The notes under the pieces are model-generated. The model did not search any database, was not told the DNA's origin, and worked only from the letters and a program-made list of their open reading frames with translations. Made by a program: the position numbers and the translations under genes. Below are positions 20,501 through 28,680 of a stretch of DNA of 64,000 bases, in pieces (positions within the stretch are counted from its first letter, which is position 1; each line of letters begins with the position of its first letter). Source of the DNA: Polyangiales bacterium (GTDB taxonomy: Bacteria > Myxococcota_A > Polyangia > Polyangiales > Ga0077539); NCBI GenBank assembly GCA_046351535.1, contig JAXLYG010000005.1, positions 229,334 through 293,333 of the forward strand. The letters are read 5' to 3'.

Positions 20501-22825
20501 TCACTCGACACCGCCGTCGGGGCGGAGGGTGACCGTGACGGCGCCCGAGAGGTCCGTGCGACGGAGGTCGACGCCGTGACGCCGCATGGCCGCGAGCACC
20601 GCGGGGTGAGGATGACCGAAGGGGGATGGGTGCCCCGCGCTCACGAGCGCCACGCGCGGACGGAGCACGTCGAGAAACGCGTCGCTGCTCGACGTGGCGC
20701 TCCCGTGATGACCGACCTTGAGCACATCGACGCGACCGAGCTGAGAGAGGATCAGCGACTCTCCCGCGCGTTCGAGGTCGCCGGGGAGGAGCGCGGAGGC
20801 GCGTCCGACGGTGATGCGGATCACGAACGACGCGTCGTTGGGGGGAGTCTCGTCGAGCGCCGAGGGACAGGGCGCGAGCACCTCGATCCACGCGCCGTGA
20901 AAGCGCCTCGGAGGACCGCACAGGGCACCCGGTCCGATCACGGGAACGTGCTTCTCCGAAGCTGTTTGAAGCGTCTCGCCGTAGGCTCCCGTGAAGCCGA
21001 GCGAACGGCCCTGGCCGGTGTCCCAGAGCGCGTCGACGCGGAGCGCGCGGAGCACCGCGGGGAGACCTCCCGCGTGATCGGGATGCGGGTGAGAGAGCAC
21101 CACCGCGACGAGGTGATCGCGCCTTCGAAGCGCGAGCCACGGAACCACCTCGCGCGCCCCCGGATCGGGACCTCCGGTGAGCGCGCCGCCGCCGTCGACG
21201 AGCATCGCTTCTCCGTCGGGGAGCTCGACCACGATCGCGTCTCCCTGACCGACGTCGATGGCCGTGATTCGCAGCGCTCCGTGTGGGTGGAGCCCGTGAC
21301 GGTGGATGGCCTCCAGCGCGCCGAGCGAGAGCGCGCACGCGAGCAGGAGCGCGAGCGTGTGTCGCAGCGAGCGACCGCACGAGGCCACGGCGAAGACCGT
21401 CGCGACGATCCACTCGGCGGGTGTCGGAGCGGGGGTCGCGATCGACGCGAACGGCAACCGCATCGCCACCGAAGGCAGCGCGAAGAGCACACCGAGGAGC
21501 CCTCCGACGGGCGTTCCAACGAGCGTCGCGAGGCTCAGCGGGAGAAGCGCGCCGAGCGCCGCCGCGACGAGCACCGCGGGGAGCAGGAGCGCCTCTCCCA
21601 CGGGCGCAGCGACGGCGTTCATCACGGTGGCCGTGAGCGGCGCGCGACCGAAGTGCCACGCGAGCGCAGGCGTGACCGCGATGCCCACGCGTACGCTCGC
21701 AGAGAGCGCGCCCACGAGCTCGCTTCGAAGATGTGACCCGAGGCTCGGAGACGCTTCTTGCGCGGGCTCCGAAGATCCGCGCGCGAGCGCCCACGACGCG
21801 ACGACCGAGAGCACCCAGCCCACGTCGACCACGAGCGACGGATCGCGCGCGGCCATCACGAGTGCCACGAGCGCCACCGCGCTCTCGCCGTGCGCGCGTC
21901 TGCCCGAGAGCGTCGCGAGGGCCGTGATCGTCGCCGTGAGCAGCGCGCGAAGGGACGACGGAGCCTCGCCCGTCACCACGACGAAGAAGCCCACGAGCGG
22001 GAGCGGGAGAATCCCTGCGACGCGCGGTGCGATGCCGCGAACGGCGAGCCAGCGGGCGCGCGTGAGCAGCGCGCGCATCACCGCGCCCGTGAGCGCGAGG
22101 AGCAGCGAGACGTGCGCGCCCGAGACCGCGAGGAGGTGCGCCATTCCCGTCTCTCGAAAGGCTTCGTGCTCGCGCGCATCGAGCCCCGTGCGGTCGCCGA
22201 AGAGGAGCGCCCTCGCGCGCGACGCGTGCTGCACCGAGAGCGACTTCGCGAGGGAGGCTTCGAGCGCGCGCCGGGTCACGAGGGCCGCGCGACGCACGAG
22301 ATCCATCGGCGAGGCGCGACGGGCGACGACCTCACACGCCGCGGAGTCGAGCGTCCAACGCAGCCCCTTCAGCACGCGCGAGAGTCCCGAAGGATCGCGC
22401 GGGGGATTGCGCATGGGGACGATCGCGCGCGCGGTGACCACGGCCTCGATCACGTCGCCCGGCATCGCGGCGCAGCGACCGGGCGGGAGGTGAAGCTCCG
22501 AGCGTCCGAAGCCATCGACCTCGACGACGCAGCGATCGCGCGCGCCGTCGGTCGCGCATCCGTCGAGGACACGTCCCCGCGCGAGGGCGGCCTCCGCGAC
22601 GGGAACCCTCGGCCACACGGGGACTTCGAGCGAAGACCGTCGCGCGCCGCCCGCGAGGAGCGCGGCCGCGAGGAGCAGCCACGACGAGGCGATTCCCCGG
22701 GCGCGGGCGACGAGCGCCACCCCCACGAGGGAGGCCGACACGATCGCGCATACGAGGGGAGGCGGGGCCCACGGGAGGGTCATCCCGAGCAGAAAGGCGG
22801 CGACGATGAGCGGGAGCGGCCCCAT
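20501..22825 (-). CDS. comEC: DNA internalization competence protein ComEC/Rec2 with C-terminal metallo-beta-lactamase domain
   Basis: Polytopic membrane competence domain. C-terminal MBL motifs (ITAIDVGQGDAIVVELPDGEAMLVDGG; SHPHPDHAGG; KVGHHGS). Confidence 0.85.
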   Translation of the reverse strand: MGPLPLIVAAFLLGMTLPWAPPPLVCAIVSASLVGVALVARARGIASSWLLLAAALLAGGARRSSLEVPVWPRVPVAEAALARGRVLDGCATDGARDRCVVEVDGFGRSELHLPPGRCAAMPGDVIEAVVTARAIVPMRNPPRDPSGLSRVLKGLRWTLDSAACEVVARRASPMDLVRRAALVTRRALEASLAKSLSVQHASRARALLFGDRTGLDAREHEAFRETGMAHLLAVSGAHVSLLLALTGAVMRALLTRARWLAVRGIAPRVAGILPLPLVGFFVVVTGEAPSSLRALLTATITALATLSGRRAHGESAVALVALVMAARDPSLVVDVGWVLSVVASWALARGSSEPAQEASPSLGSHLRSELVGALSASVRVGIAVTPALAWHFGRAPLTATVMNAVAAPVGEALLLPAVLVAAALGALLPLSLATLVGTPVGGLLGVLFALPSVAMRLPFASIATPAPTPAEWIVATVFAVASCGRSLRHTLALLLACALSLGALEAIHRHGLHPHGALRITAIDVGQGDAIVVELPDGEAMLVDGGGALTGGPDPGAREVVPWLALRRRDHLVAVVLSHPHPDHAGGLPAVLRALRVDALWDTGQGRSLGFTGAYGETLQTASEKHVPVIGPGALCGPPRRFHGAWIEVLAPCPSALDETPPNDASFVIRITVGRASALLPGDLERAGESLILSQLGRVDVLKVGHHGSATSSSDAFLDVLRPRVALVSAGHPSPFGHPHPAVLAAMRRHGVDLRRTDLSGAVTVTLRPDGGVE

Positions 22826-23031
22826 GCGGGGGCGCCCATCAGCCTCCGTGCCTCCTCACGAAAGCCTACGAAACAAGACCTTTGTGAGATCGTGGGGTGG
22901 CGGATCGGGTGGCGGCGGGGTGGCGATCGGGTGGCGGCCCGCCACCCCCTGGTCGAGCGTTCGTTGCATCCACGCAACGATGGCTGTCTCCCTGAGTTGA
23001 CCGGAAAAGAGCTTGACCTTGGGAGACCATA

Positions 23032-23075
23032 CCCTTACGTAAGGGGAGGTTCAGCCTCCAACCCTTACGCATGGG
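23032..23075 (+). promoter_or_regulatory. candidate operator: perfect 14-bp palindrome CCCTTACGTAAGGG plus a second CCCTTACGCATGGG half-site, downstream of TTGACC -35-like hexamers, immediately upstream of the MerR-type gene
   Basis: Palindrome read directly at 23032-23045 and related copy at 23062-23075. TTGACC hexamers at 22996 and 23013. Confidence 0.3.
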
Positions 23076-23083
23076 TGAGAGTT

Positions 23084-23647
23084 ATGACGGTCCGACTTCC
23101 GATCGCAGACACGACCTCCGAGCTGGCGCTTCGCCCGCCGCGCGAGGCTTCGTCTGCTGACGGGGTCGCGCCGGGCGAGCTCCTTCGCGTGGGCGACATC
23201 GCGCAGCGCACCAACAAGACCGTGCGCGCGCTGCACCTCTACGAGGAGCTCGGGCTGCTCCACCCCATCGAGCGCAGCAAAGGCGGCTTTCGCCTCTACG
23301 GCCCCGACGCCGTGGTGCGCGTGCGCTGGATCGCGAAGCTTCAGGACATGGGCTTCTCGCTGCCCGACATCAAAGAGCTGCTCCACGAGTGGGGCCGCTC
23401 GGGGTCGGCGACGGGCGCCATGACGCGCATCCGCGAGCTCTACCGCCAGAAGCTCGATGAGACCGACGCGCAGATCAAGAAGCTCCAGGCGTTGCGCCAC
23501 GAGCTCTCGTCGTCGGTCGACTACCTCGAGACCTGCGAGGTGTGCGACCCCGTGCGCCTCATCTCCGCTTGTCCACACTGTGAAATGCACGGCTGCGGAG
23601 CCCCCGACCTCGTCGCGGGGCTCCACGGCGCGCGGCCCTCGACGTGA
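23084..23647 (+). CDS. MerR family transcriptional regulator with C-terminal Cys cluster (CEVCDP…CPHCEMHGC)
   Basis: MerR HTH ([28 protein letters not shown]) and coiled-coil dimerisation helix. C-terminal C-x2-C…C-x2-C-x3-C, a likely metal or Fe-S sensing site. It lies directly upstream of iscS. Confidence 0.75.
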
Positions 23648-23667
23648 CCCCGAAGGATCACCTGAAC

Positions 23668-24900
23668 ATGGCCCTCAAGCTCCCGATCTACATGGACTAC
23701 CACGCCACCACGCCCGTCGATCCGCGCGTGCTGGAGACCATGCTCCCGTACTTCACCGAGAAGTTCGGCAACGCCGCGTCGCGCTCGCACCGCTTCGGCT
23801 GGGAGGCCGAAGAGGCCGTCAGCTACGCCCGCGAGCAGGTGGCCACGCTCATCGGCGCCGACAAGCCCGAGGAGATCGTCTTCACCTCGGGCGCGAGCGA
23901 GAGCAACAACCTCGCGCTCAAGGGCGTGGCCGAGTTCTACCGCGACAAGGGCGACCACATCATCACCACGAAGGTCGAGCACAAGGCCGTGCTCGACACC
24001 TGCAAGCGCCTCGAGAAGCAGGGCTTCAAGGTCACCTACCTCGACGTCGACAAGACCGGCATCGTCTCGCCCGAGGCCGTGCGCGAGGCCATCACCGACA
24101 AGACCATCCTCGTGTCGGTGATGCTCGCCAACAACGAGGTCGGCACCATCCAGCCCATCGCGGACATCGGCAAGATCTGCAAGGACCGCGGCGTGCTCTT
24201 TCACGTCGACGCCGTGCAGGGCCTCGGCAAGACCGAGTTCGACGTGCGCGCGATGGGCGTCGACCTCGCCTCGCTCACGGCGCACAAGATCTACGGGCCG
24301 AAGGGCGTGGGCGCGCTCTACGTCCGTCGCTCGCGTCCGCGCGTGCGCATCGCGGCGCAGATCGACGGCGGCGGACACGAGCGCGGCATGCGCTCGGGCA
24401 CGCTCAACGTCACGGGCATCGTGGGCTTCGGCAAGGCCTGCGAGGTGCTCACGAAGACGTGGCGCGACGAGGTCGTTCGCATCCGCGCGCAGCGCGACCG
24501 GCTCTCGAAGCGGATCTTCGAAGGGCTCGACGAGGTGTACCTCAACGGCCCCGCGCTCGATGGTCCGTCGCGGCTGCCCAACAACCTCAACGTGTCGTTC
24601 GCCTACGTCGAGGGCGAGGGGCTGATGATGGCCATCAAAGACGTGGCCGTCTCGTCGGGGAGCGCGTGCACCAGCTCGTCGCTCGAGCCCTCGTATGTGC
24701 TCCGCGCGCTCGGCGTCGACGAGGAGCTCGCGCACACGAGCATCCGCTTCGGGCTCGGGCGATTCACCACCGACGAGGAGGTCGACTTCGTGGCCGACCT
24801 GGTGATCTCGAAGGTGAAGAAGCTCCGCGACCTCTCGCCGCTCTACGAGATGGCGAAGGAGGGCATCGACATCAAGAACATCCAGTGGGCCGCCCACTGA
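23668..24900 (+). CDS. iscS: cysteine desulfurase IscS
   Basis: PLP-lysine region ([18 protein letters not shown]) and the active-site Cys loop ([17 protein letters not shown]). Strongly IscS/NifS-like throughout. Confidence 0.92.
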
Positions 24901-24936
24901 TCACCGTCTTCGCAACGAACTGAAGGACACCGCGCC

Positions 24937-25335
24937 ATGGCGTACAGCGACAAGGTCATCGAGCACGCAGAGAACCCCAGGAACGTGGGGACGCTCGACA
25001 AGGAAGATCCCAACGTGGGCACCGGGCTCGTCGGCGCGCCGGCGTGCGGCGACGTGATGCGGCTGCAGATCAAGGTCGGCGACGGCGGCGTGATCGAGGA
25101 CGCCAAGTTCAAGACCTTCGGCTGCGGCTCGGCCATCGCCAGCTCGTCGCTCGCGACGGAGTGGCTCAAGGGCCGCACGCTCGACGAGGCCGAGACCATC
25201 AAGAACACCGACATCGTGGCGGAGCTCAACCTCCCGCCCGTGAAGATCCACTGCTCGGTGCTCGCCGAAGACGCCATCAAGAGCGCCATCGACGACTACC
25301 GCAAGAAGCAGGCTGCGCGTCGGGCGCAGGGCTGA
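24937..25335 (+). CDS. iscU: Fe-S cluster assembly scaffold IscU
   Basis: GAPACGDVMRLQIKV, the LPPVK HscA-binding motif, and conserved Cys and His ligands (KIHCSVLAEDAI). Confidence 0.92.
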   Translation: MAYSDKVIEHAENPRNVGTLDKEDPNVGTGLVGAPACGDVMRLQIKVGDGGVIEDAKFKTFGCGSAIASSSLATEWLKGRTLDEAETIKNTDIVAELNLPPVKIHCSVLAEDAIKSAIDDYRKKQAARRAQG

Positions 25336-25350
25336 GAGGAGACGGCGACG

Positions 25351-25743
25351 ATGGACGCGCAGACGACACCCGCAGCGACCCCCGCGGCGACCCCCGAGCG
25401 GCGCGAGGAGAAGGTCCTCTCGATCTCGGTCTCTCCCAAGGCCGTGGTGAAGGCGAAGGAGGCGCTCGCGAAGCGCGGCACTCCGACGGCGATGCTGCGA
25501 CTCGGCGTGCGCGGCGGCGGCTGCTCGGGCTTCGGCTACGTGATCGAGTTCGCCGACGAGCCGGGCGCGCGCGACAAGGTCTTCGAGTTCGACGGGCTCA
25601 AGGTGGTCATCGACCCGAAGTCCCTCGTGCTCCTCAACGGCGCGACCCTCGACTACGAGACCAAGCTCATGGGCCACGGCTTCAAGTTCGTGAACCCCAA
25701 CGAGAAGACCTCGTGCGGCTGCGGCGAGAGCTTTACCGTCTGA
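25351..25743 (+). CDS. iscA: Fe-S cluster insertion protein IscA/HesB family
   Basis: GGGCSGFGY and C-terminal SCGCGESF Cys ligands. Confidence 0.85.
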   Translation: MDAQTTPAATPAATPERREEKVLSISVSPKAVVKAKEALAKRGTPTAMLRLGVRGGGCSGFGYVIEFADEPGARDKVFEFDGLKVVIDPKSLVLLNGATLDYETKLMGHGFKFVNPNEKTSCGCGESFTV

Positions 25744-25768
25744 GCCCGCGCTGCGTCGCGGTACATCG

Positions 25769-26278
25769 ATGAACGACCCCTTCGCCACGCTCGGCGTCCC
25801 CGCCCGCTTCTCCTTCGCGACCGGCGAGCTCGAACAGCGTCACAGAGACCTCTCGCGCGCCCTGCACCCCGACCGCTACGTGAACGCGCCTTCGAGCGAG
25901 CGACGCGTGGCGCTCGAGCGCGCGGTCTCGGTCAACGACGCCTTTCGCGCGCTCAAAGACCCGCTCACCAGGGCGCAGTCGCTCCTCGCACTCCACGGCC
26001 TCTCGATCCGCGAAGGCGAGCGCGCCGCCCCGGCGCTCCTCATGGAGATCATGGAGCTGCGCGAGGAGCTCGACGCCGTTCGCACGAAGCCCGAGCGTGT
26101 GGCCTCGCTGCGCGCGCAGGTCGACGCCCACGTCGCCGCCCAGGAGCGCGTCGTCGCCGAGGTCTTCGACCGCGAGGGACCCATCGACGCGAAGGCGCTC
26201 TCGCGCGCCCGCGACGCCGTCGTGAAGCTCCGGTATTACAAGCGCTTCCAGGAAGAGGCCGACGCCCTCGACGAGTGA
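25769..26278 (+). CDS. hscB: Fe-S assembly co-chaperone HscB (J-domain)
   Basis: J-domain with HPD (LSRALHPDRY) and a C-terminal helical HscB domain, between iscA and hscA. Confidence 0.8.
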   Translation: MNDPFATLGVPARFSFATGELEQRHRDLSRALHPDRYVNAPSSERRVALERAVSVNDAFRALKDPLTRAQSLLALHGLSIREGERAAPALLMEIMELREELDAVRTKPERVASLRAQVDAHVAAQERVVAEVFDREGPIDAKALSRARDAVVKLRYYKRFQEEADALDE

Positions 26279-26341
26279 CCCTCGCGTCGCCGCTCTCGCT
26301 GCGAACTCAAATCTCTCTCAACGATCGGCTGAGCTCTCATC

Positions 26342-28288
26342 ATGGCCCTCTTGCAGATCTTCGACCCCAAGGCCCGCGCGGTCCCCATCGGCATCGACCT
26401 CGGGACCACCAACTCCCTCGTCGCCTACGTCGTCGATGGTCGCCCCGAGTGCATCACCGATTGCAACCTCTCGGCGCTCCTCCCGAGCGTGGTTCACTAC
26501 GGCCCCCACAGCGTCATCGTCGGCGACGACGCGCGCGCCCTCGCGGCGGAGAATCCCCGCGAGACCCTCGTCTCGGTGAAGCGCTTCATGGGCCGCGGCG
26601 CGGACGATCCCGAGACCCGCAGGCTCGGCCCCTACGACTTCGTCTCGCCGCGTGAGGGAGAGTCCAACACCGTGCGCTTCATGGTGCGCGGTCGCGAGGT
26701 CACCCCCGTCGAGGTCTCCGCCGAGATTCTCAAGGTGCTCAAGGCCCGCGCGGAGGATCACCTCCGCACCGTGGGCGGCGCGGTGATCACCGTGCCCGCG
26801 TACTTCGACGACGCGCAGCGACAGGCCACCCGCGACGCCGCGCGCCTCGCCGGACTCGAAGTGCTGCGCCTCCTCAACGAGCCCACCGCCGCGGCCCTCG
26901 CCTACGGCCTCGACAAGGGGCGCACCGCGGGGACCTTCGCCGTCTACGACCTCGGCGGAGGCACCTTCGACATCACCATCCTCTCGCTCGACGACGGCGT
27001 TTTTCAGGTCCGTTCGACGGGCGGAGACTCGCAGCTCGGCGGCGACGACATGGACCGCGCCGTCGCCACCGCGGCGCTCCGCGAGATGGGCGTCACGGAC
27101 CTCGATGCTGCCTCGCCGGGGCTCGTGCGCAGGGCGCTCGACGCGGCGCGCGCGGCCAAGCACCGGCTCACCGCAGAGACCTCCACCACGCTCACCATCG
27201 CGCGCGATGACGGAACGGACTTCTCCCAGACGCTCACGCGCGAGGCCTTCGACGCGCTCGTGCGACCCGTCGTCGAGCGCACCGGACCGGCTTGCAGAAG
27301 GGCGCTCCGCGACGCGGGCGTGAAGCCCGAGGAGCTCGACGGGGTGATCCTCGTGGGCGGCTCGACGCGCGTCCCGCTCGTGCGATCGTTCGTGGCCGAA
27401 CTGTTCAAGCGTCAGCCCCTCGCGGACATCGACCCCGATCAGGTCGTCGCCGCGGGCGCCGCGCTCCAGGCCGACATGCTCGCGGGCGAGGGGCCCCGAG
27501 AGGACGCGCTGATTCTCGACGTGATCCCGCTCTCGCTCGGCATCGAGACGATGGGCGGCGTGGCCGAGAAGATCCTCCCGAGGAACACCACGATCCCCGC
27601 GGGGCGCGCGCAGCTCTTCACCACGTACTCCGATCAGCAGACGGGCTTCGTCATCCACGTCGTGCAGGGCGAGCGAGAGCTCGCCGCCGACAACCGCTCG
27701 CTCGCGACCTTCACGCTCAAGGGAATCCCCCAGATGCCCGCGGGCGCCGCGAGGCTCGAGGTGACCTTCCGCGTCGACGCCGACGGGCTCCTCTCGGTCA
27801 CCGCGAAGGAGCTCACCACGGGCGTCGAGCAGCACGTCGAGGTGAAGCCCTCGTACGGACTCGAAGCCGACGACGTGGAGCGCATGCTCATGGAGTCCTT
27901 CGAACACGCCGAGGAGGACATCGCCGCGCGGCAGCTCCGCGAGCGCACCGTCGAGGCCGAGCAGGTGATCGCCGCGACCCACAAAGCCCTCTCGCTCGAC
28001 GGAGACCTCCTCGACGAGGACGAGCGCGCCGAGCTCGACGGCGCCCTCGCGGCGCTTCGAAAGGCCGTGGAGAAGGGTGACTCCACGGGCATTCACCTCC
28101 GCACCGAGGCGCTCGATCGCGCGGCCCTCCCGCTCGCCGAGCGCAGGATGAACCGCGCCGTGAAGCGGGCGATGTCTGGCCACGAGCTCCAGGAGTTCGA
28201 GCGCGAGCTCAAGGATCGGCCCGCGCACCCGCACCTCGTGGAGCCCCACGACCACGACCACGGCCACGACCACGATCACGCGCACTGA
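26342..28288 (+). CDS. hscA: Fe-S assembly chaperone HscA (Hsp70 family) with His/Asp-rich C-terminal tail
   Basis: Hsp70 signatures ([13 protein letters not shown]; [14 protein letters not shown]; [11 protein letters not shown]). The C-terminus ends [13 protein letters not shown]. Confidence 0.9.
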
Positions 28289-28302
28289 GAGAGGACCATC
28301 TG

Positions 28303-28680
28303 ATGAGCGTCGTGCGCTTTCTCAACACCGAAACGGGCCCCGTCGAAGTCGAGGTCCCCGTCGGAACGAGCATCCTCCAGGCCGCGCAGAAGGGACACGT
28401 CCCCGAGGGGAGCGCGTGCGGCGGCGTCTGCGCGTGCTCGACCTGCCACGTCTACGTGCGCGAGGGATCGAAGCTCCTGAGCGAGGCCGAAGACGAGGAG
28501 CTCGACATCCTCGACAAGGCCTTCGGCGTCGAGCTGACCTCGCGCCTCGGCTGTCAGGCGAAGATCGAGCGCGAGGGGACGCTCGTCGTCGAGCTCACGC
28601 GCGAGAGCGTCGACACCTGGTACAACGAGCACCCGCAGGAGCGTCACGCCCGCGACGCGCGGCTGAAGAAGGGCTCCTGA
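28303..28680 (+). CDS. fdx: [2Fe-2S] ferredoxin, adrenodoxin-type (isc Fdx)
   Basis: Cys ligands C-x5-C-x2-C…C (GSACGGVCACSTCHV … LGCQ). Confidence 0.85.
   Translation: MSVVRFLNTETGPVEVEVPVGTSILQAAQKGHVPEGSACGGVCACSTCHVYVREGSKLLSEAEDEELDILDKAFGVELTSRLGCQAKIEREGTLVVELTRESVDTWYNEHPQERHARDARLKKGS

Follow-up and report, generated by a model that had tools for sequence, protein, structure and literature searches.

What governs the iron-sulfur cluster (ISC) assembly operon when the gene at its head encodes a MerR-family protein? To our knowledge, every well-studied case in which the production of iron-sulfur (Fe-S) clusters is matched to demand uses a cluster-carrying regulator (IscR, RisR or SufR). 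The question is raised by a stretch of 64,000 nucleotides (nt) from Polyangiales bacterium GCA_046351535.1 (contig JAXLYG010000005.1, positions 229,334-293,333 of the forward strand; hereafter the window), in which a MerR-family gene with a C-terminal cluster of cysteines stands directly in front of iscS-iscU-iscA-hscB-hscA-fdx. The answer proposed here is that this regulator is a transcription factor dedicated to the ISC operon and controlling its own gene as well, which takes the place of IscR, is built on a MerR scaffold and acts as an Fe-S feedback repressor. We give this proposal as a whole an even chance of being right.

A MerR-family gene at the head of the isc operon

A first-pass annotation of the window had placed the MerR-family gene at the head of the isc block, and this is borne out by translation, by Pfam profiles and by the gene order of related loci (Table 1). 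The start of iscS lies 20 nt 3' of the MerR gene, the iscS-iscU-iscA-hscB-hscA-fdx block occupies 23668..28680 on the forward strand (+), and a terminator scan of 22700-23800 found no terminator-like site between the MerR gene and iscS. Since comEC diverges from the MerR gene upstream and the opposite strand carries the next gene after fdx, the transcription unit is delimited as merR-iscSUA-hscBA-fdx.

The same arrangement recurs among relatives. These were collected by a GTDB scan with one genome per species, and the best 80 of 585 were fetched as loci; all 80 belong to Myxococcota, mostly to Polyangiales, Polyangiaceae and Sandaracinaceae, and they include Labilithrix luteola DSM 27648. Within contig reach, merR is directly followed by iscS-iscU-iscA-hscB-hscA-fdx in 80/80 loci, with regulator identity falling to ~50%. 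When 1.84 billion cluster representatives were searched with a profile, 193 clusters were returned at E <=1e-30 (~190 clusters at 50% identity). Of four distant members of the family that were examined, two (P0277 and P0291) are followed by the full isc set, one (P0271) by iscA alone, and one (P0358, locus L204) by a cysteine desulfurase, iscA and an Hsp70-like gene. Because such distant members also sit beside Fe-S assembly genes, linkage to Fe-S assembly is a property of the whole family. On a bioreactor contig with a guanine-plus-cytosine (GC) content of 47% (L201, 5934-6910), the regulator is followed by an IscA-type gene only. In L204 (5185-9005), the most distant member examined, the neighbours encode a cysteine desulfurase, an IscA-type protein, a 211-aa protein without annotation and a short protein resembling Hsp70; iscU was not called in this cluster, possibly a reduced version or a variant of an ISC-like system.

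The regulator is assigned to the MerR family (COG0789) on its profile matches and predicted fold, both the winged helix-turn-helix and the dimerisation helix being found. Pfam MerR_1 matches residues 35-101 with 54.3 bits (cut-off 21.6), Pfam MerR scores 37.3 bits (cut-off 28.2), and Pfam MerR-DNA-bind matches residues 77-142 with 52.9 bits (cut-off 25.4). Two alignments were used, A1 with 28 sequences and A2 with 103, together with a wider family set of 364 sequences. A single-chain AlphaFold2 (AF2) model built with A2 showed a confident MerR fold over residues 30-150, comprising the helix-turn-helix, the wing and a dimerisation helix at 109-150, whereas the N-terminus was disordered. When this model was compared with the PDB by Foldseek, the SoxR-DNA structure 2zhg came first (34% identity over ~115 residues), followed by CueR, CadR, MtaN and PbrR. 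BLASTP against E. coli SoxR gave 34% identity over 116 residues in an alignment that ends just before the Cys region. In the alignments, the recognition helix is nearly invariant throughout the family.

Which kind of MerR protein is it? The equivalog cut-offs of NCBIfam were missed for CueR (64 against 147), ZntR (59 against 168), SoxR (TIGR01950; 55 against 117), CadR-PbrR (53 against 151) and MerR (50 against 151). Since neither these cut-offs nor the corresponding Cys motifs are matched by its sequence, the regulator is placed outside SoxR, CueR, ZntR, CadR and MerR proper. A database protein 100% identical to it (P0001) is named 'MerR family DNA-binding protein [Polyangiales bacterium]'.

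A short N-terminal peptide precedes the DNA-binding domain. A1 shows no variation at M1, L5 and P6, and the pattern M-x(1-4)-[RKQ]-L-P-[ILV] occurs in 63/80 loci, with the R, L and P codons varying synonymously. This RLP peptide is found in the Polyangia clade and is absent from the distant members L201-L204; in the AF2 model it is predicted to be disordered. Conservation at the protein level combined with synonymous variation indicates that the peptide is under selection and that the annotated start codon is right. A shorter gene starting from an internal GTG (V36) was considered, and was ruled out by the conserved M-x-x-R-L-P-I with its synonymous codon changes. The N-terminus of SoxR carries KLP, which resembles the peptide, and there is also a loose resemblance to LPPVK, the HscA-binding motif of IscU, which the window's own IscU contains. 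By analogy, the N-terminal peptide might be a chaperone or protease handle.

Operator dyads and promoter geometry

Does the DNA in front of merR contain a site that such a protein would recognize? The first-pass annotation had pointed to a perfect palindrome and a second CCCTTACG half-site between the TTGACC hexamers and the start codon. Both were located. The perfect 14-bp palindrome CCCTTACGTAAGGG lies at 23032-23045, and CCCTTACGCATGGG, which is related to it, lies at 23062-23075; neither has another match at <=2 mismatches in the 64 kb, with 0.03 expected by chance. The palindrome region is conserved upstream of isc in the relatives and is specific to the promoter, but what is conserved there takes the form of dyads. 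Alignment of 64 upstream regions defined the conserved unit as a 22-bp 8-6-8 dyad, ACyCTyAC-N6-GTrAGrGT, usually present in two copies, and the 14-bp palindrome was accordingly replaced by this dyad as the operator unit. In the window, the perfect palindrome arises because the spacer of the putative operator O1, CCTTAC, repeats the half-site. The equivalent position in relatives is occupied by a clean dyad, for example ACCCTTAC-CCGTAC-GTAAGGGT in L009. The second putative operator, O2, is the sole dyad match at >=13/16 in the window.

The dyad is sharply confined to the merR promoter. Across the 80 loci, 145 dyads at >=13/16 were found in 16 kb upstream of merR, compared with 9 in 917 kb of flanking sequence, corresponding to ~900-fold enrichment per base; at >=15/16, the numbers were 74 upstream of merR and 0 in the flanks. 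The distant loci L201-L203 keep dyads solely in front of merR, and no dyad was found upstream of merR in L204. A metagenome scan, limited to perfect dyads, gave at least 120 loci; among the matches listed, 12 are merR-isc promoters, on contigs with merR beside the perfect dyad; L099, which is cut by the contig end, is probably a thirteenth. No recurrent second target was found among the perfect-dyad matches listed, the remainder being chance matches in low-GC sequence or an unrelated hairpin resembling repetitive extragenic palindromic (REP) sequences. A wider regulon was considered and rejected, as nothing beyond the merR promoter was found in the window and no dyad at >=15/16 in the flanks.

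The hairpin just mentioned is an observation in its own right. In high-GC metagenome contigs with no merR nearby, a perfect dyad ACCCTTACTGCGCAGTAAGGGT forms the tip of a longer inverted repeat (...ctcACCCTTACTGCGCAGTAAGGGTgag...), which was seen in L100, L101, L109, L130 (two copies), L140, L153, L156, L159, L164, L179 and L181. It looks like an element resembling REP sequences or miniature inverted-repeat transposable elements (MITEs), unrelated to the operator.

The size of the dyad and its ACyCT...AGrGT ends match the published operators of the metal-sensing MerR group, such as that of ZntR, ACTCTGGAGTCGACTCCAGAGT, that of firmicute MerR, ACCGTGTAC-N4-GTACAGGGT, and that of CueR, ACCTTCCC-N5-TGGAAGGT (PMC1526738). 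A MerR-like dyad and a MerR-type recognition helix make the regulator the obvious candidate to bind it. On these sequence features, we consider it highly probable that the regulator binds the dyads and regulates the isc operon.

The position of the dyads bears on the sign of this regulation. Of the TTGACC hexamers that had been annotated 5' of the palindrome, both are present (22997-23002 and 23013-23018) and only the second is conserved, as CTTGAC; it is the predicted -35 element. TA follows [CT]TTGAC at exactly 17 nt in 49/63 promoters, within TACGTA, TAGATA, TAAGTA and similar hexamers. TACGTA stands at this 17-nt spacing in 18/20 loci (L001-L019 and L023), and TAGATA or TAAGTA stands there in other clades. 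Relative to the -35 element, the position of the dyad is constant within each clade. In the window's clade, one dyad lies over the spacer and the -10 element and a second lies ~36 bp further on. Sandaracinaceae-type loci have a single perfect dyad 12-15 nt beyond the -10 element, and Polyangiaceae-type loci have one dyad abutting the -35 element from upstream and one downstream. Overall, a dyad lies over the spacer and -10 element or downstream of them in 59/63 promoters.

The arrangement that defines the MerR family is a dyad centred in a spacer of 19-20 bp (PMC1526738). This canonical geometry was looked for and was not found, the predicted spacer being 17 bp in 49/63 promoters. Dyads over or past the -10 element of a 17-bp-spacer promoter form a repressor arrangement, not that of classic MerR activation, and the geometry thus suggests autorepression. 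That repression is the main effect is regarded as moderately probable. Permina et al. likewise concluded repression for a CadR-type site at a promoter with a 17-bp spacer (PMC1526738).

The Cys-His motif and the competing readings

What might the regulator sense? The first-pass annotation had described a C-terminal Cys cluster, similar to that of SoxR but differently spaced. The cluster is indeed conserved in orthologues, and its spacing, C-x2-C-x8-C-x2-C-x2-H, differs from the C-x2-C-x-C-x5-C of SoxR as proposed; the ligand set, however, is amended to four Cys and a His. C151, C154, P156 and C166 are invariant in A1 and A2, and C163 and H169 are kept at 90% or more, whereas the fifth cysteine, C171, is variable (C, Y, E, H, D, Q, S). 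In the 364-sequence family set, the pattern [YF]L-x2-C-x2(3)-C-...-C-x2-C is present in 306 sequences, and the loop between the two Cys pairs has 8 residues in 257 of these 306. [DE]P directly follows the second Cys in 167 sequences, and a His lies at +3 from the last Cys in 207 and <=5 residues away in 272. Among distant members, the inter-pair loop ranges from 6 to 16 residues. The C-terminal tail P-[ED]-L-V-A-G is also conserved. The Cys tail matched no Pfam family, and in a profile search of all PDB sequences no PDB chain spanned it. In the AF2 model, the first Cys pair falls right at the end of the dimerisation helix, which is where the cluster or metal is bound in the known structures of SoxR, CueR, ZntR and MerR.

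The proposed mechanism runs as follows. The regulator would dimerise through its long helix, as follows from the fold, and its helix-turn-helix would bind the 22-bp dyads, in keeping with their conservation, their specificity and their MerR-like shape. Judging from the geometry, protein bound at O1, over the predicted -10 element, and at O2, in the leader up to the start codon, would block both the regulator's own gene and iscSUA-hscBA-fdx. The Cys4-His motif at the end of the dimerisation helix would most likely receive an Fe-S cluster from the ISC machinery. Cluster-loaded protein would repress; when clusters are scarce or damaged, as under iron limitation or exposure to oxidants, repression would be lost and the operon would come on. 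This feedback logic would be that of holo-IscR and holo-RisR. From the motif and its setting, an Fe-S cluster as the cofactor has close to an even chance, perhaps slightly under. There is precedent in IscR, RisR and SufR, which are encoded together with Fe-S assembly genes and each carry an Fe-S cluster (PMC9973013). A fuller version of the proposal is offered only tentatively, since taken whole it falls well short of even: the MerR family would have been recruited, independently of Rrf2 and SufR, as an Fe-S-sensing ISC repressor with an undescribed cluster motif, C-x2-C-[DE]P-x6-C-x2-C-x2-H, at the SoxR position and the operator geometry of a plain repressor, the N-terminal peptide in Polyangia possibly being a handle for HscA/HscB or a protease; such a handle would couple maturation or turnover of the regulator to the machinery under its control.

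Several points weigh against the proposal of an Fe-S feedback repressor. The AF2 confidence score (predicted local distance difference test, pLDDT) is just 54-68 in the Cys region; a poor model is to be expected here, as the metal site was modelled without a metal or a partner chain. The window's own O1 is a poor 8-6-8 dyad (12/16). The promoter is a prediction, TACGTA is weak as a -10 element, and a generic sigma-70 scan returned nothing in 22700-23800. Among the COG0789 regulators that have been characterised, almost every one is an activator bound inside a spacer of 19-20 bp (PMC1526738), unlike the arrangement here. In addition, the placement of the dyad differs by clade, and an additional dyad stands immediately 5' of the -35 element in some loci. 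In L201 the sole dyad lies there, with its centre at ~-50, which suits activation better than repression; activation from an upstream dyad is possible. By analogy with RisR in Myxococcus xanthus, isc could also be under the control of an Rrf2 regulator whose gene lies in another part of the genome.

A further objection lies in the motif itself, as two CxxC pairs 8 residues apart also make up the classic zinc-knuckle pattern. In the main rival explanation, the four Cys would hold a structural or redox-active zinc, like that of RsrA or Hsp33, and the signal would be thiol oxidation with release of the zinc under oxidative stress, in place of occupancy by an Fe-S cluster. The spacing CxxC-x8-CxxC is frequent among Zn(Cys)4 sites, a loop of 6-16 residues in distant members would be tolerated by knuckle-type sites, and one member shows a weak, sub-threshold similarity to zf-UBR (E = 0.013). 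However, a plain Zn(Cys)4 knuckle needs neither the nearly invariant His at +3 nor the [DE]P, the motif sits where SoxR has its cluster, and the strictness of the link to Fe-S assembly genes is best explained by sensing of the product of the pathway. Zinc with thiol-based signalling is considered unlikely.

Two other readings, a metal-activated MerR protein and dominant control by a distant Rrf2 protein, are less likely than the zinc- and thiol-based one, and each is judged improbable. In the former, the regulator would be a conventional MerR metal sensor, binding Fe(II) as Fe(Cys)4, or a thiophilic metal harmful to Fe-S clusters such as Zn, Cd or Cu, and on binding the metal would activate isc by promoter remodelling. 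Its best sequence profiles are indeed CueR, ZntR, CadR and MerR, the size and ends of the dyad are those of heavy-metal MerR operators, and in six loci (L020-L022, L024 and L033, which are of type B, and also L018) a dyad starts 1-2 nt after TTGAC[AG], inside the spacer. Yet every named equivalog cut-off is missed widely, the Cys found at the start of the dimerisation helix in ZntR and CadR is absent, and no metal efflux gene was found near the merR-isc locus. The spacer, moreover, is 17 bp, and most dyads lie over or past the -10 element, where untwisting of the promoter cannot activate.

In the latter reading, a RisR or IscR homologue encoded at a distance, for example beside suf, would be the main controller, and the MerR protein would be accessory or unrelated. 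In M. xanthus, no regulator is encoded within the isc operon itself, and repression is exerted in trans by holo-RisR, an Rrf2 protein whose gene lies at suf; the RisR box, TkGAC-N7-GTCCw, overlaps the -10 element and transcription start of isc (PMC9973013). The portion of the genome examined here is 64 kb, and it contains a one-mismatch RisR-like match at 23013-23029. This match, however, is at chance level (4 in the window against 8.6 expected), its GAC-N7-GTC core is broken and it is not conserved, and the 64 promoters together hold 0 full RisR boxes and 1 GAC-N7-GTC core, where 3.25 cores would be expected. A tblastn search with IscR and NsrR detected no Rrf2 gene, either in the window, where the best E was 1.5, or across the 80 loci to a distance of 7 kb, and no Pfam match to an Rrf2 domain was found in the regulator. 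The one motif conserved at this place is the MerR-like dyad. RisR/Rrf2 control of the promoter was rejected as a candidate because the neighbourhood lacks an Rrf2 gene and the 64 promoters lack a RisR box. The earlier statement that a MerR protein stands here in place of an Rrf2-type IscR therefore holds for the window and for the surroundings of the 80 loci, and it is compatible with an Rrf2 protein acting in trans. Finally, the idea that the palindrome arose by chance or is part of a terminator or repeat is refuted, since, although a perfect dyad also occurs inside the unrelated REP-like hairpin of high-GC contigs, only 0.03 matches are expected in the window, enrichment upstream of merR is ~900-fold and the position of the dyad is fixed in each clade.

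Known systems and neighbouring features

How does the regulator compare with those already known? By analogy, it would work most like IscR and RisR, and it looks most like SoxR. Like the [2Fe-2S] protein SoxR of E. coli, it combines a MerR fold with four Cys right after the dimerisation helix and a palindromic operator of ~20 bp. Unlike SoxR, and apart from the spacing of its C-x2-C-x8-C-x2-C(-x2-H) motif and its low TIGR01950 score, it has an operator outside a 19-20-bp spacer, it targets its own isc operon instead of soxS or efflux genes, and it likely represses. With IscR, the Rrf2 protein of Proteobacteria, it shares its place at the head of the isc operon, predicted autoregulation, a Cys/His set ending in C-x2-H (the ligands of IscR are C92, C98, C104 and H107) and the expected Fe-S feedback, whereas its fold is that of MerR and not the Rrf2 winged helix, and its operator is another. 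ZntR, CadR, PbrR, CueR and MerR are the closest profiles and have the same 21-22-bp dyad with ACyCT...AGrGT ends and a site at the end of the dimerisation helix; the regulator differs from them in the missed cut-offs, in its Cys pattern, in the predicted 17-bp spacer with the dyad outside it or over the -10 element, and in being linked to Fe-S assembly, not to efflux or detoxification. RisR comes from the same phylum and has the same iscSUA-hscBA-fdx target, an operator over the -10 element and a holo form that represses, as is proposed here; it belongs to a different protein family, its gene lies at suf and not at isc, and its box is absent here (PMC9973013). SufR is likewise a protein of a non-Rrf2 family that has come to serve, with Cys ligands, as the regulator within an operon for Fe-S assembly (PMC9973013), but its fold is of the ArsR/DeoR type and what it controls, in cyanobacteria and actinobacteria, is SUF, not ISC.

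A description of a MerR-type isc regulator was not found in full-text searches of the literature, and only Rrf2 and the ArsR-like SufR are given as regulator types recruited to Fe-S operons (PMC9973013). If the proposal is correct, MerR would be a further independent recruitment to Fe-S control, bringing with it a new candidate cluster- or metal-binding motif, and the regulator would be an example of a MerR scaffold acting at a promoter with a normal 17-bp spacer. It would also mean that bacterial classes closely related to one another wire the same ISC operon differently, Myxococcia by RisR in trans and the present lineage by a cis-encoded MerR. Labilithrix luteola, at least, is a carrier of the regulator that has been cultured and completely sequenced, which, together with the ~190 clusters and the sharp operator, makes the hypothesis directly testable. 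The interest would lie chiefly in the fields of Fe-S homeostasis and the MerR family.

The coordinates of the regulator, its promoter and the neighbouring genes are collected in Table 1.

Table 1. Features of the merR-isc locus, in window coordinates
Feature	Position	Strand	Basis or remark
comEC, divergent neighbour upstream	20501-22825	-	
Distal TTGACC hexamer	22997..23002	+	Conserved in the closest relatives L001, L002 and L004 only; probably not the -35 element
CTTGACC, predicted -35 element	23012..23018	+	[CT]TTGAC in 63/64 promoters
Operator O1 (putative)	23025..23046		GACCATAC-CCTTAC-GTAAGGGG; degenerate left half, 12/16 by hand count; contains the 14-bp palindrome
TACGTA, predicted -10 element inside O1	23036..23041	+	17-bp spacer from the predicted -35 element
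Operator O2 (putative)	23061..23082		ACCCTTAC-GCATGG-GTGAGAGT; 16/16 to the degenerate consensus; ends 1 nt before ATG
MerR-family regulator gene	23084..23647	+	187 aa by translation
N-terminal peptide V-R-L-P-I-A, residues 3-8	23090..23107	+	Alignment A1, 80 loci
Winged helix-turn-helix DNA-binding domain, residues 35-101	23186..23386	+	Pfam MerR_1
Long dimerisation helix, residues 109-150	23408..23533	+	AF2 pLDDT ~85-97; Pfam MerR-DNA-bind
Sensor motif C151-x2-C154-D-P-x6-C163-x2-C166-x2-H169	23534..23590	+	Alignments
iscS	23668-24900	+	Curated NCBIfam cut-off passed
iscU	24937-25335	+	Curated cut-off passed
iscA	25351-25743	+	TIGR00049 subfamily cut-off passed; IscA equivalog cut-off missed
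hscB	25769-26278	+	TIGR00714 curated cut-off passed
hscA	26342-28288	+	Curated cut-off passed
fdx, ISC-type ferredoxin	28303-28680	+	86.8 against 132.1, under the fdx_isc cut-off

Among the genes of the block, hscA ends unusually: the C-terminus of HscA (28250-28288) is a His/Asp-rich tail that is unusual for this protein and could be a metal binder. The intergenic region between comEC and merR also holds repeated sequences. At 22894-22948, GGGTGGCGG occurs in four direct copies and CCGCCACCC in one inverted copy, and in at least 11 related loci clusters of GGTGGCGG/CCGCCACC lie 95-250 nt 5' of merR. Their density there is 35 per 24 kb, compared with 136 per 909 kb elsewhere, a difference of ~10x; the clusters could be the site of another factor or a structural part of divergent promoters. 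Directly 5' of the distal TTGACC, at 22956-22985, an imperfect hairpin is formed by AGCGTTCGTTGC and GCAACGATGGCT, with arms of 12 nt and a loop of 6 nt.

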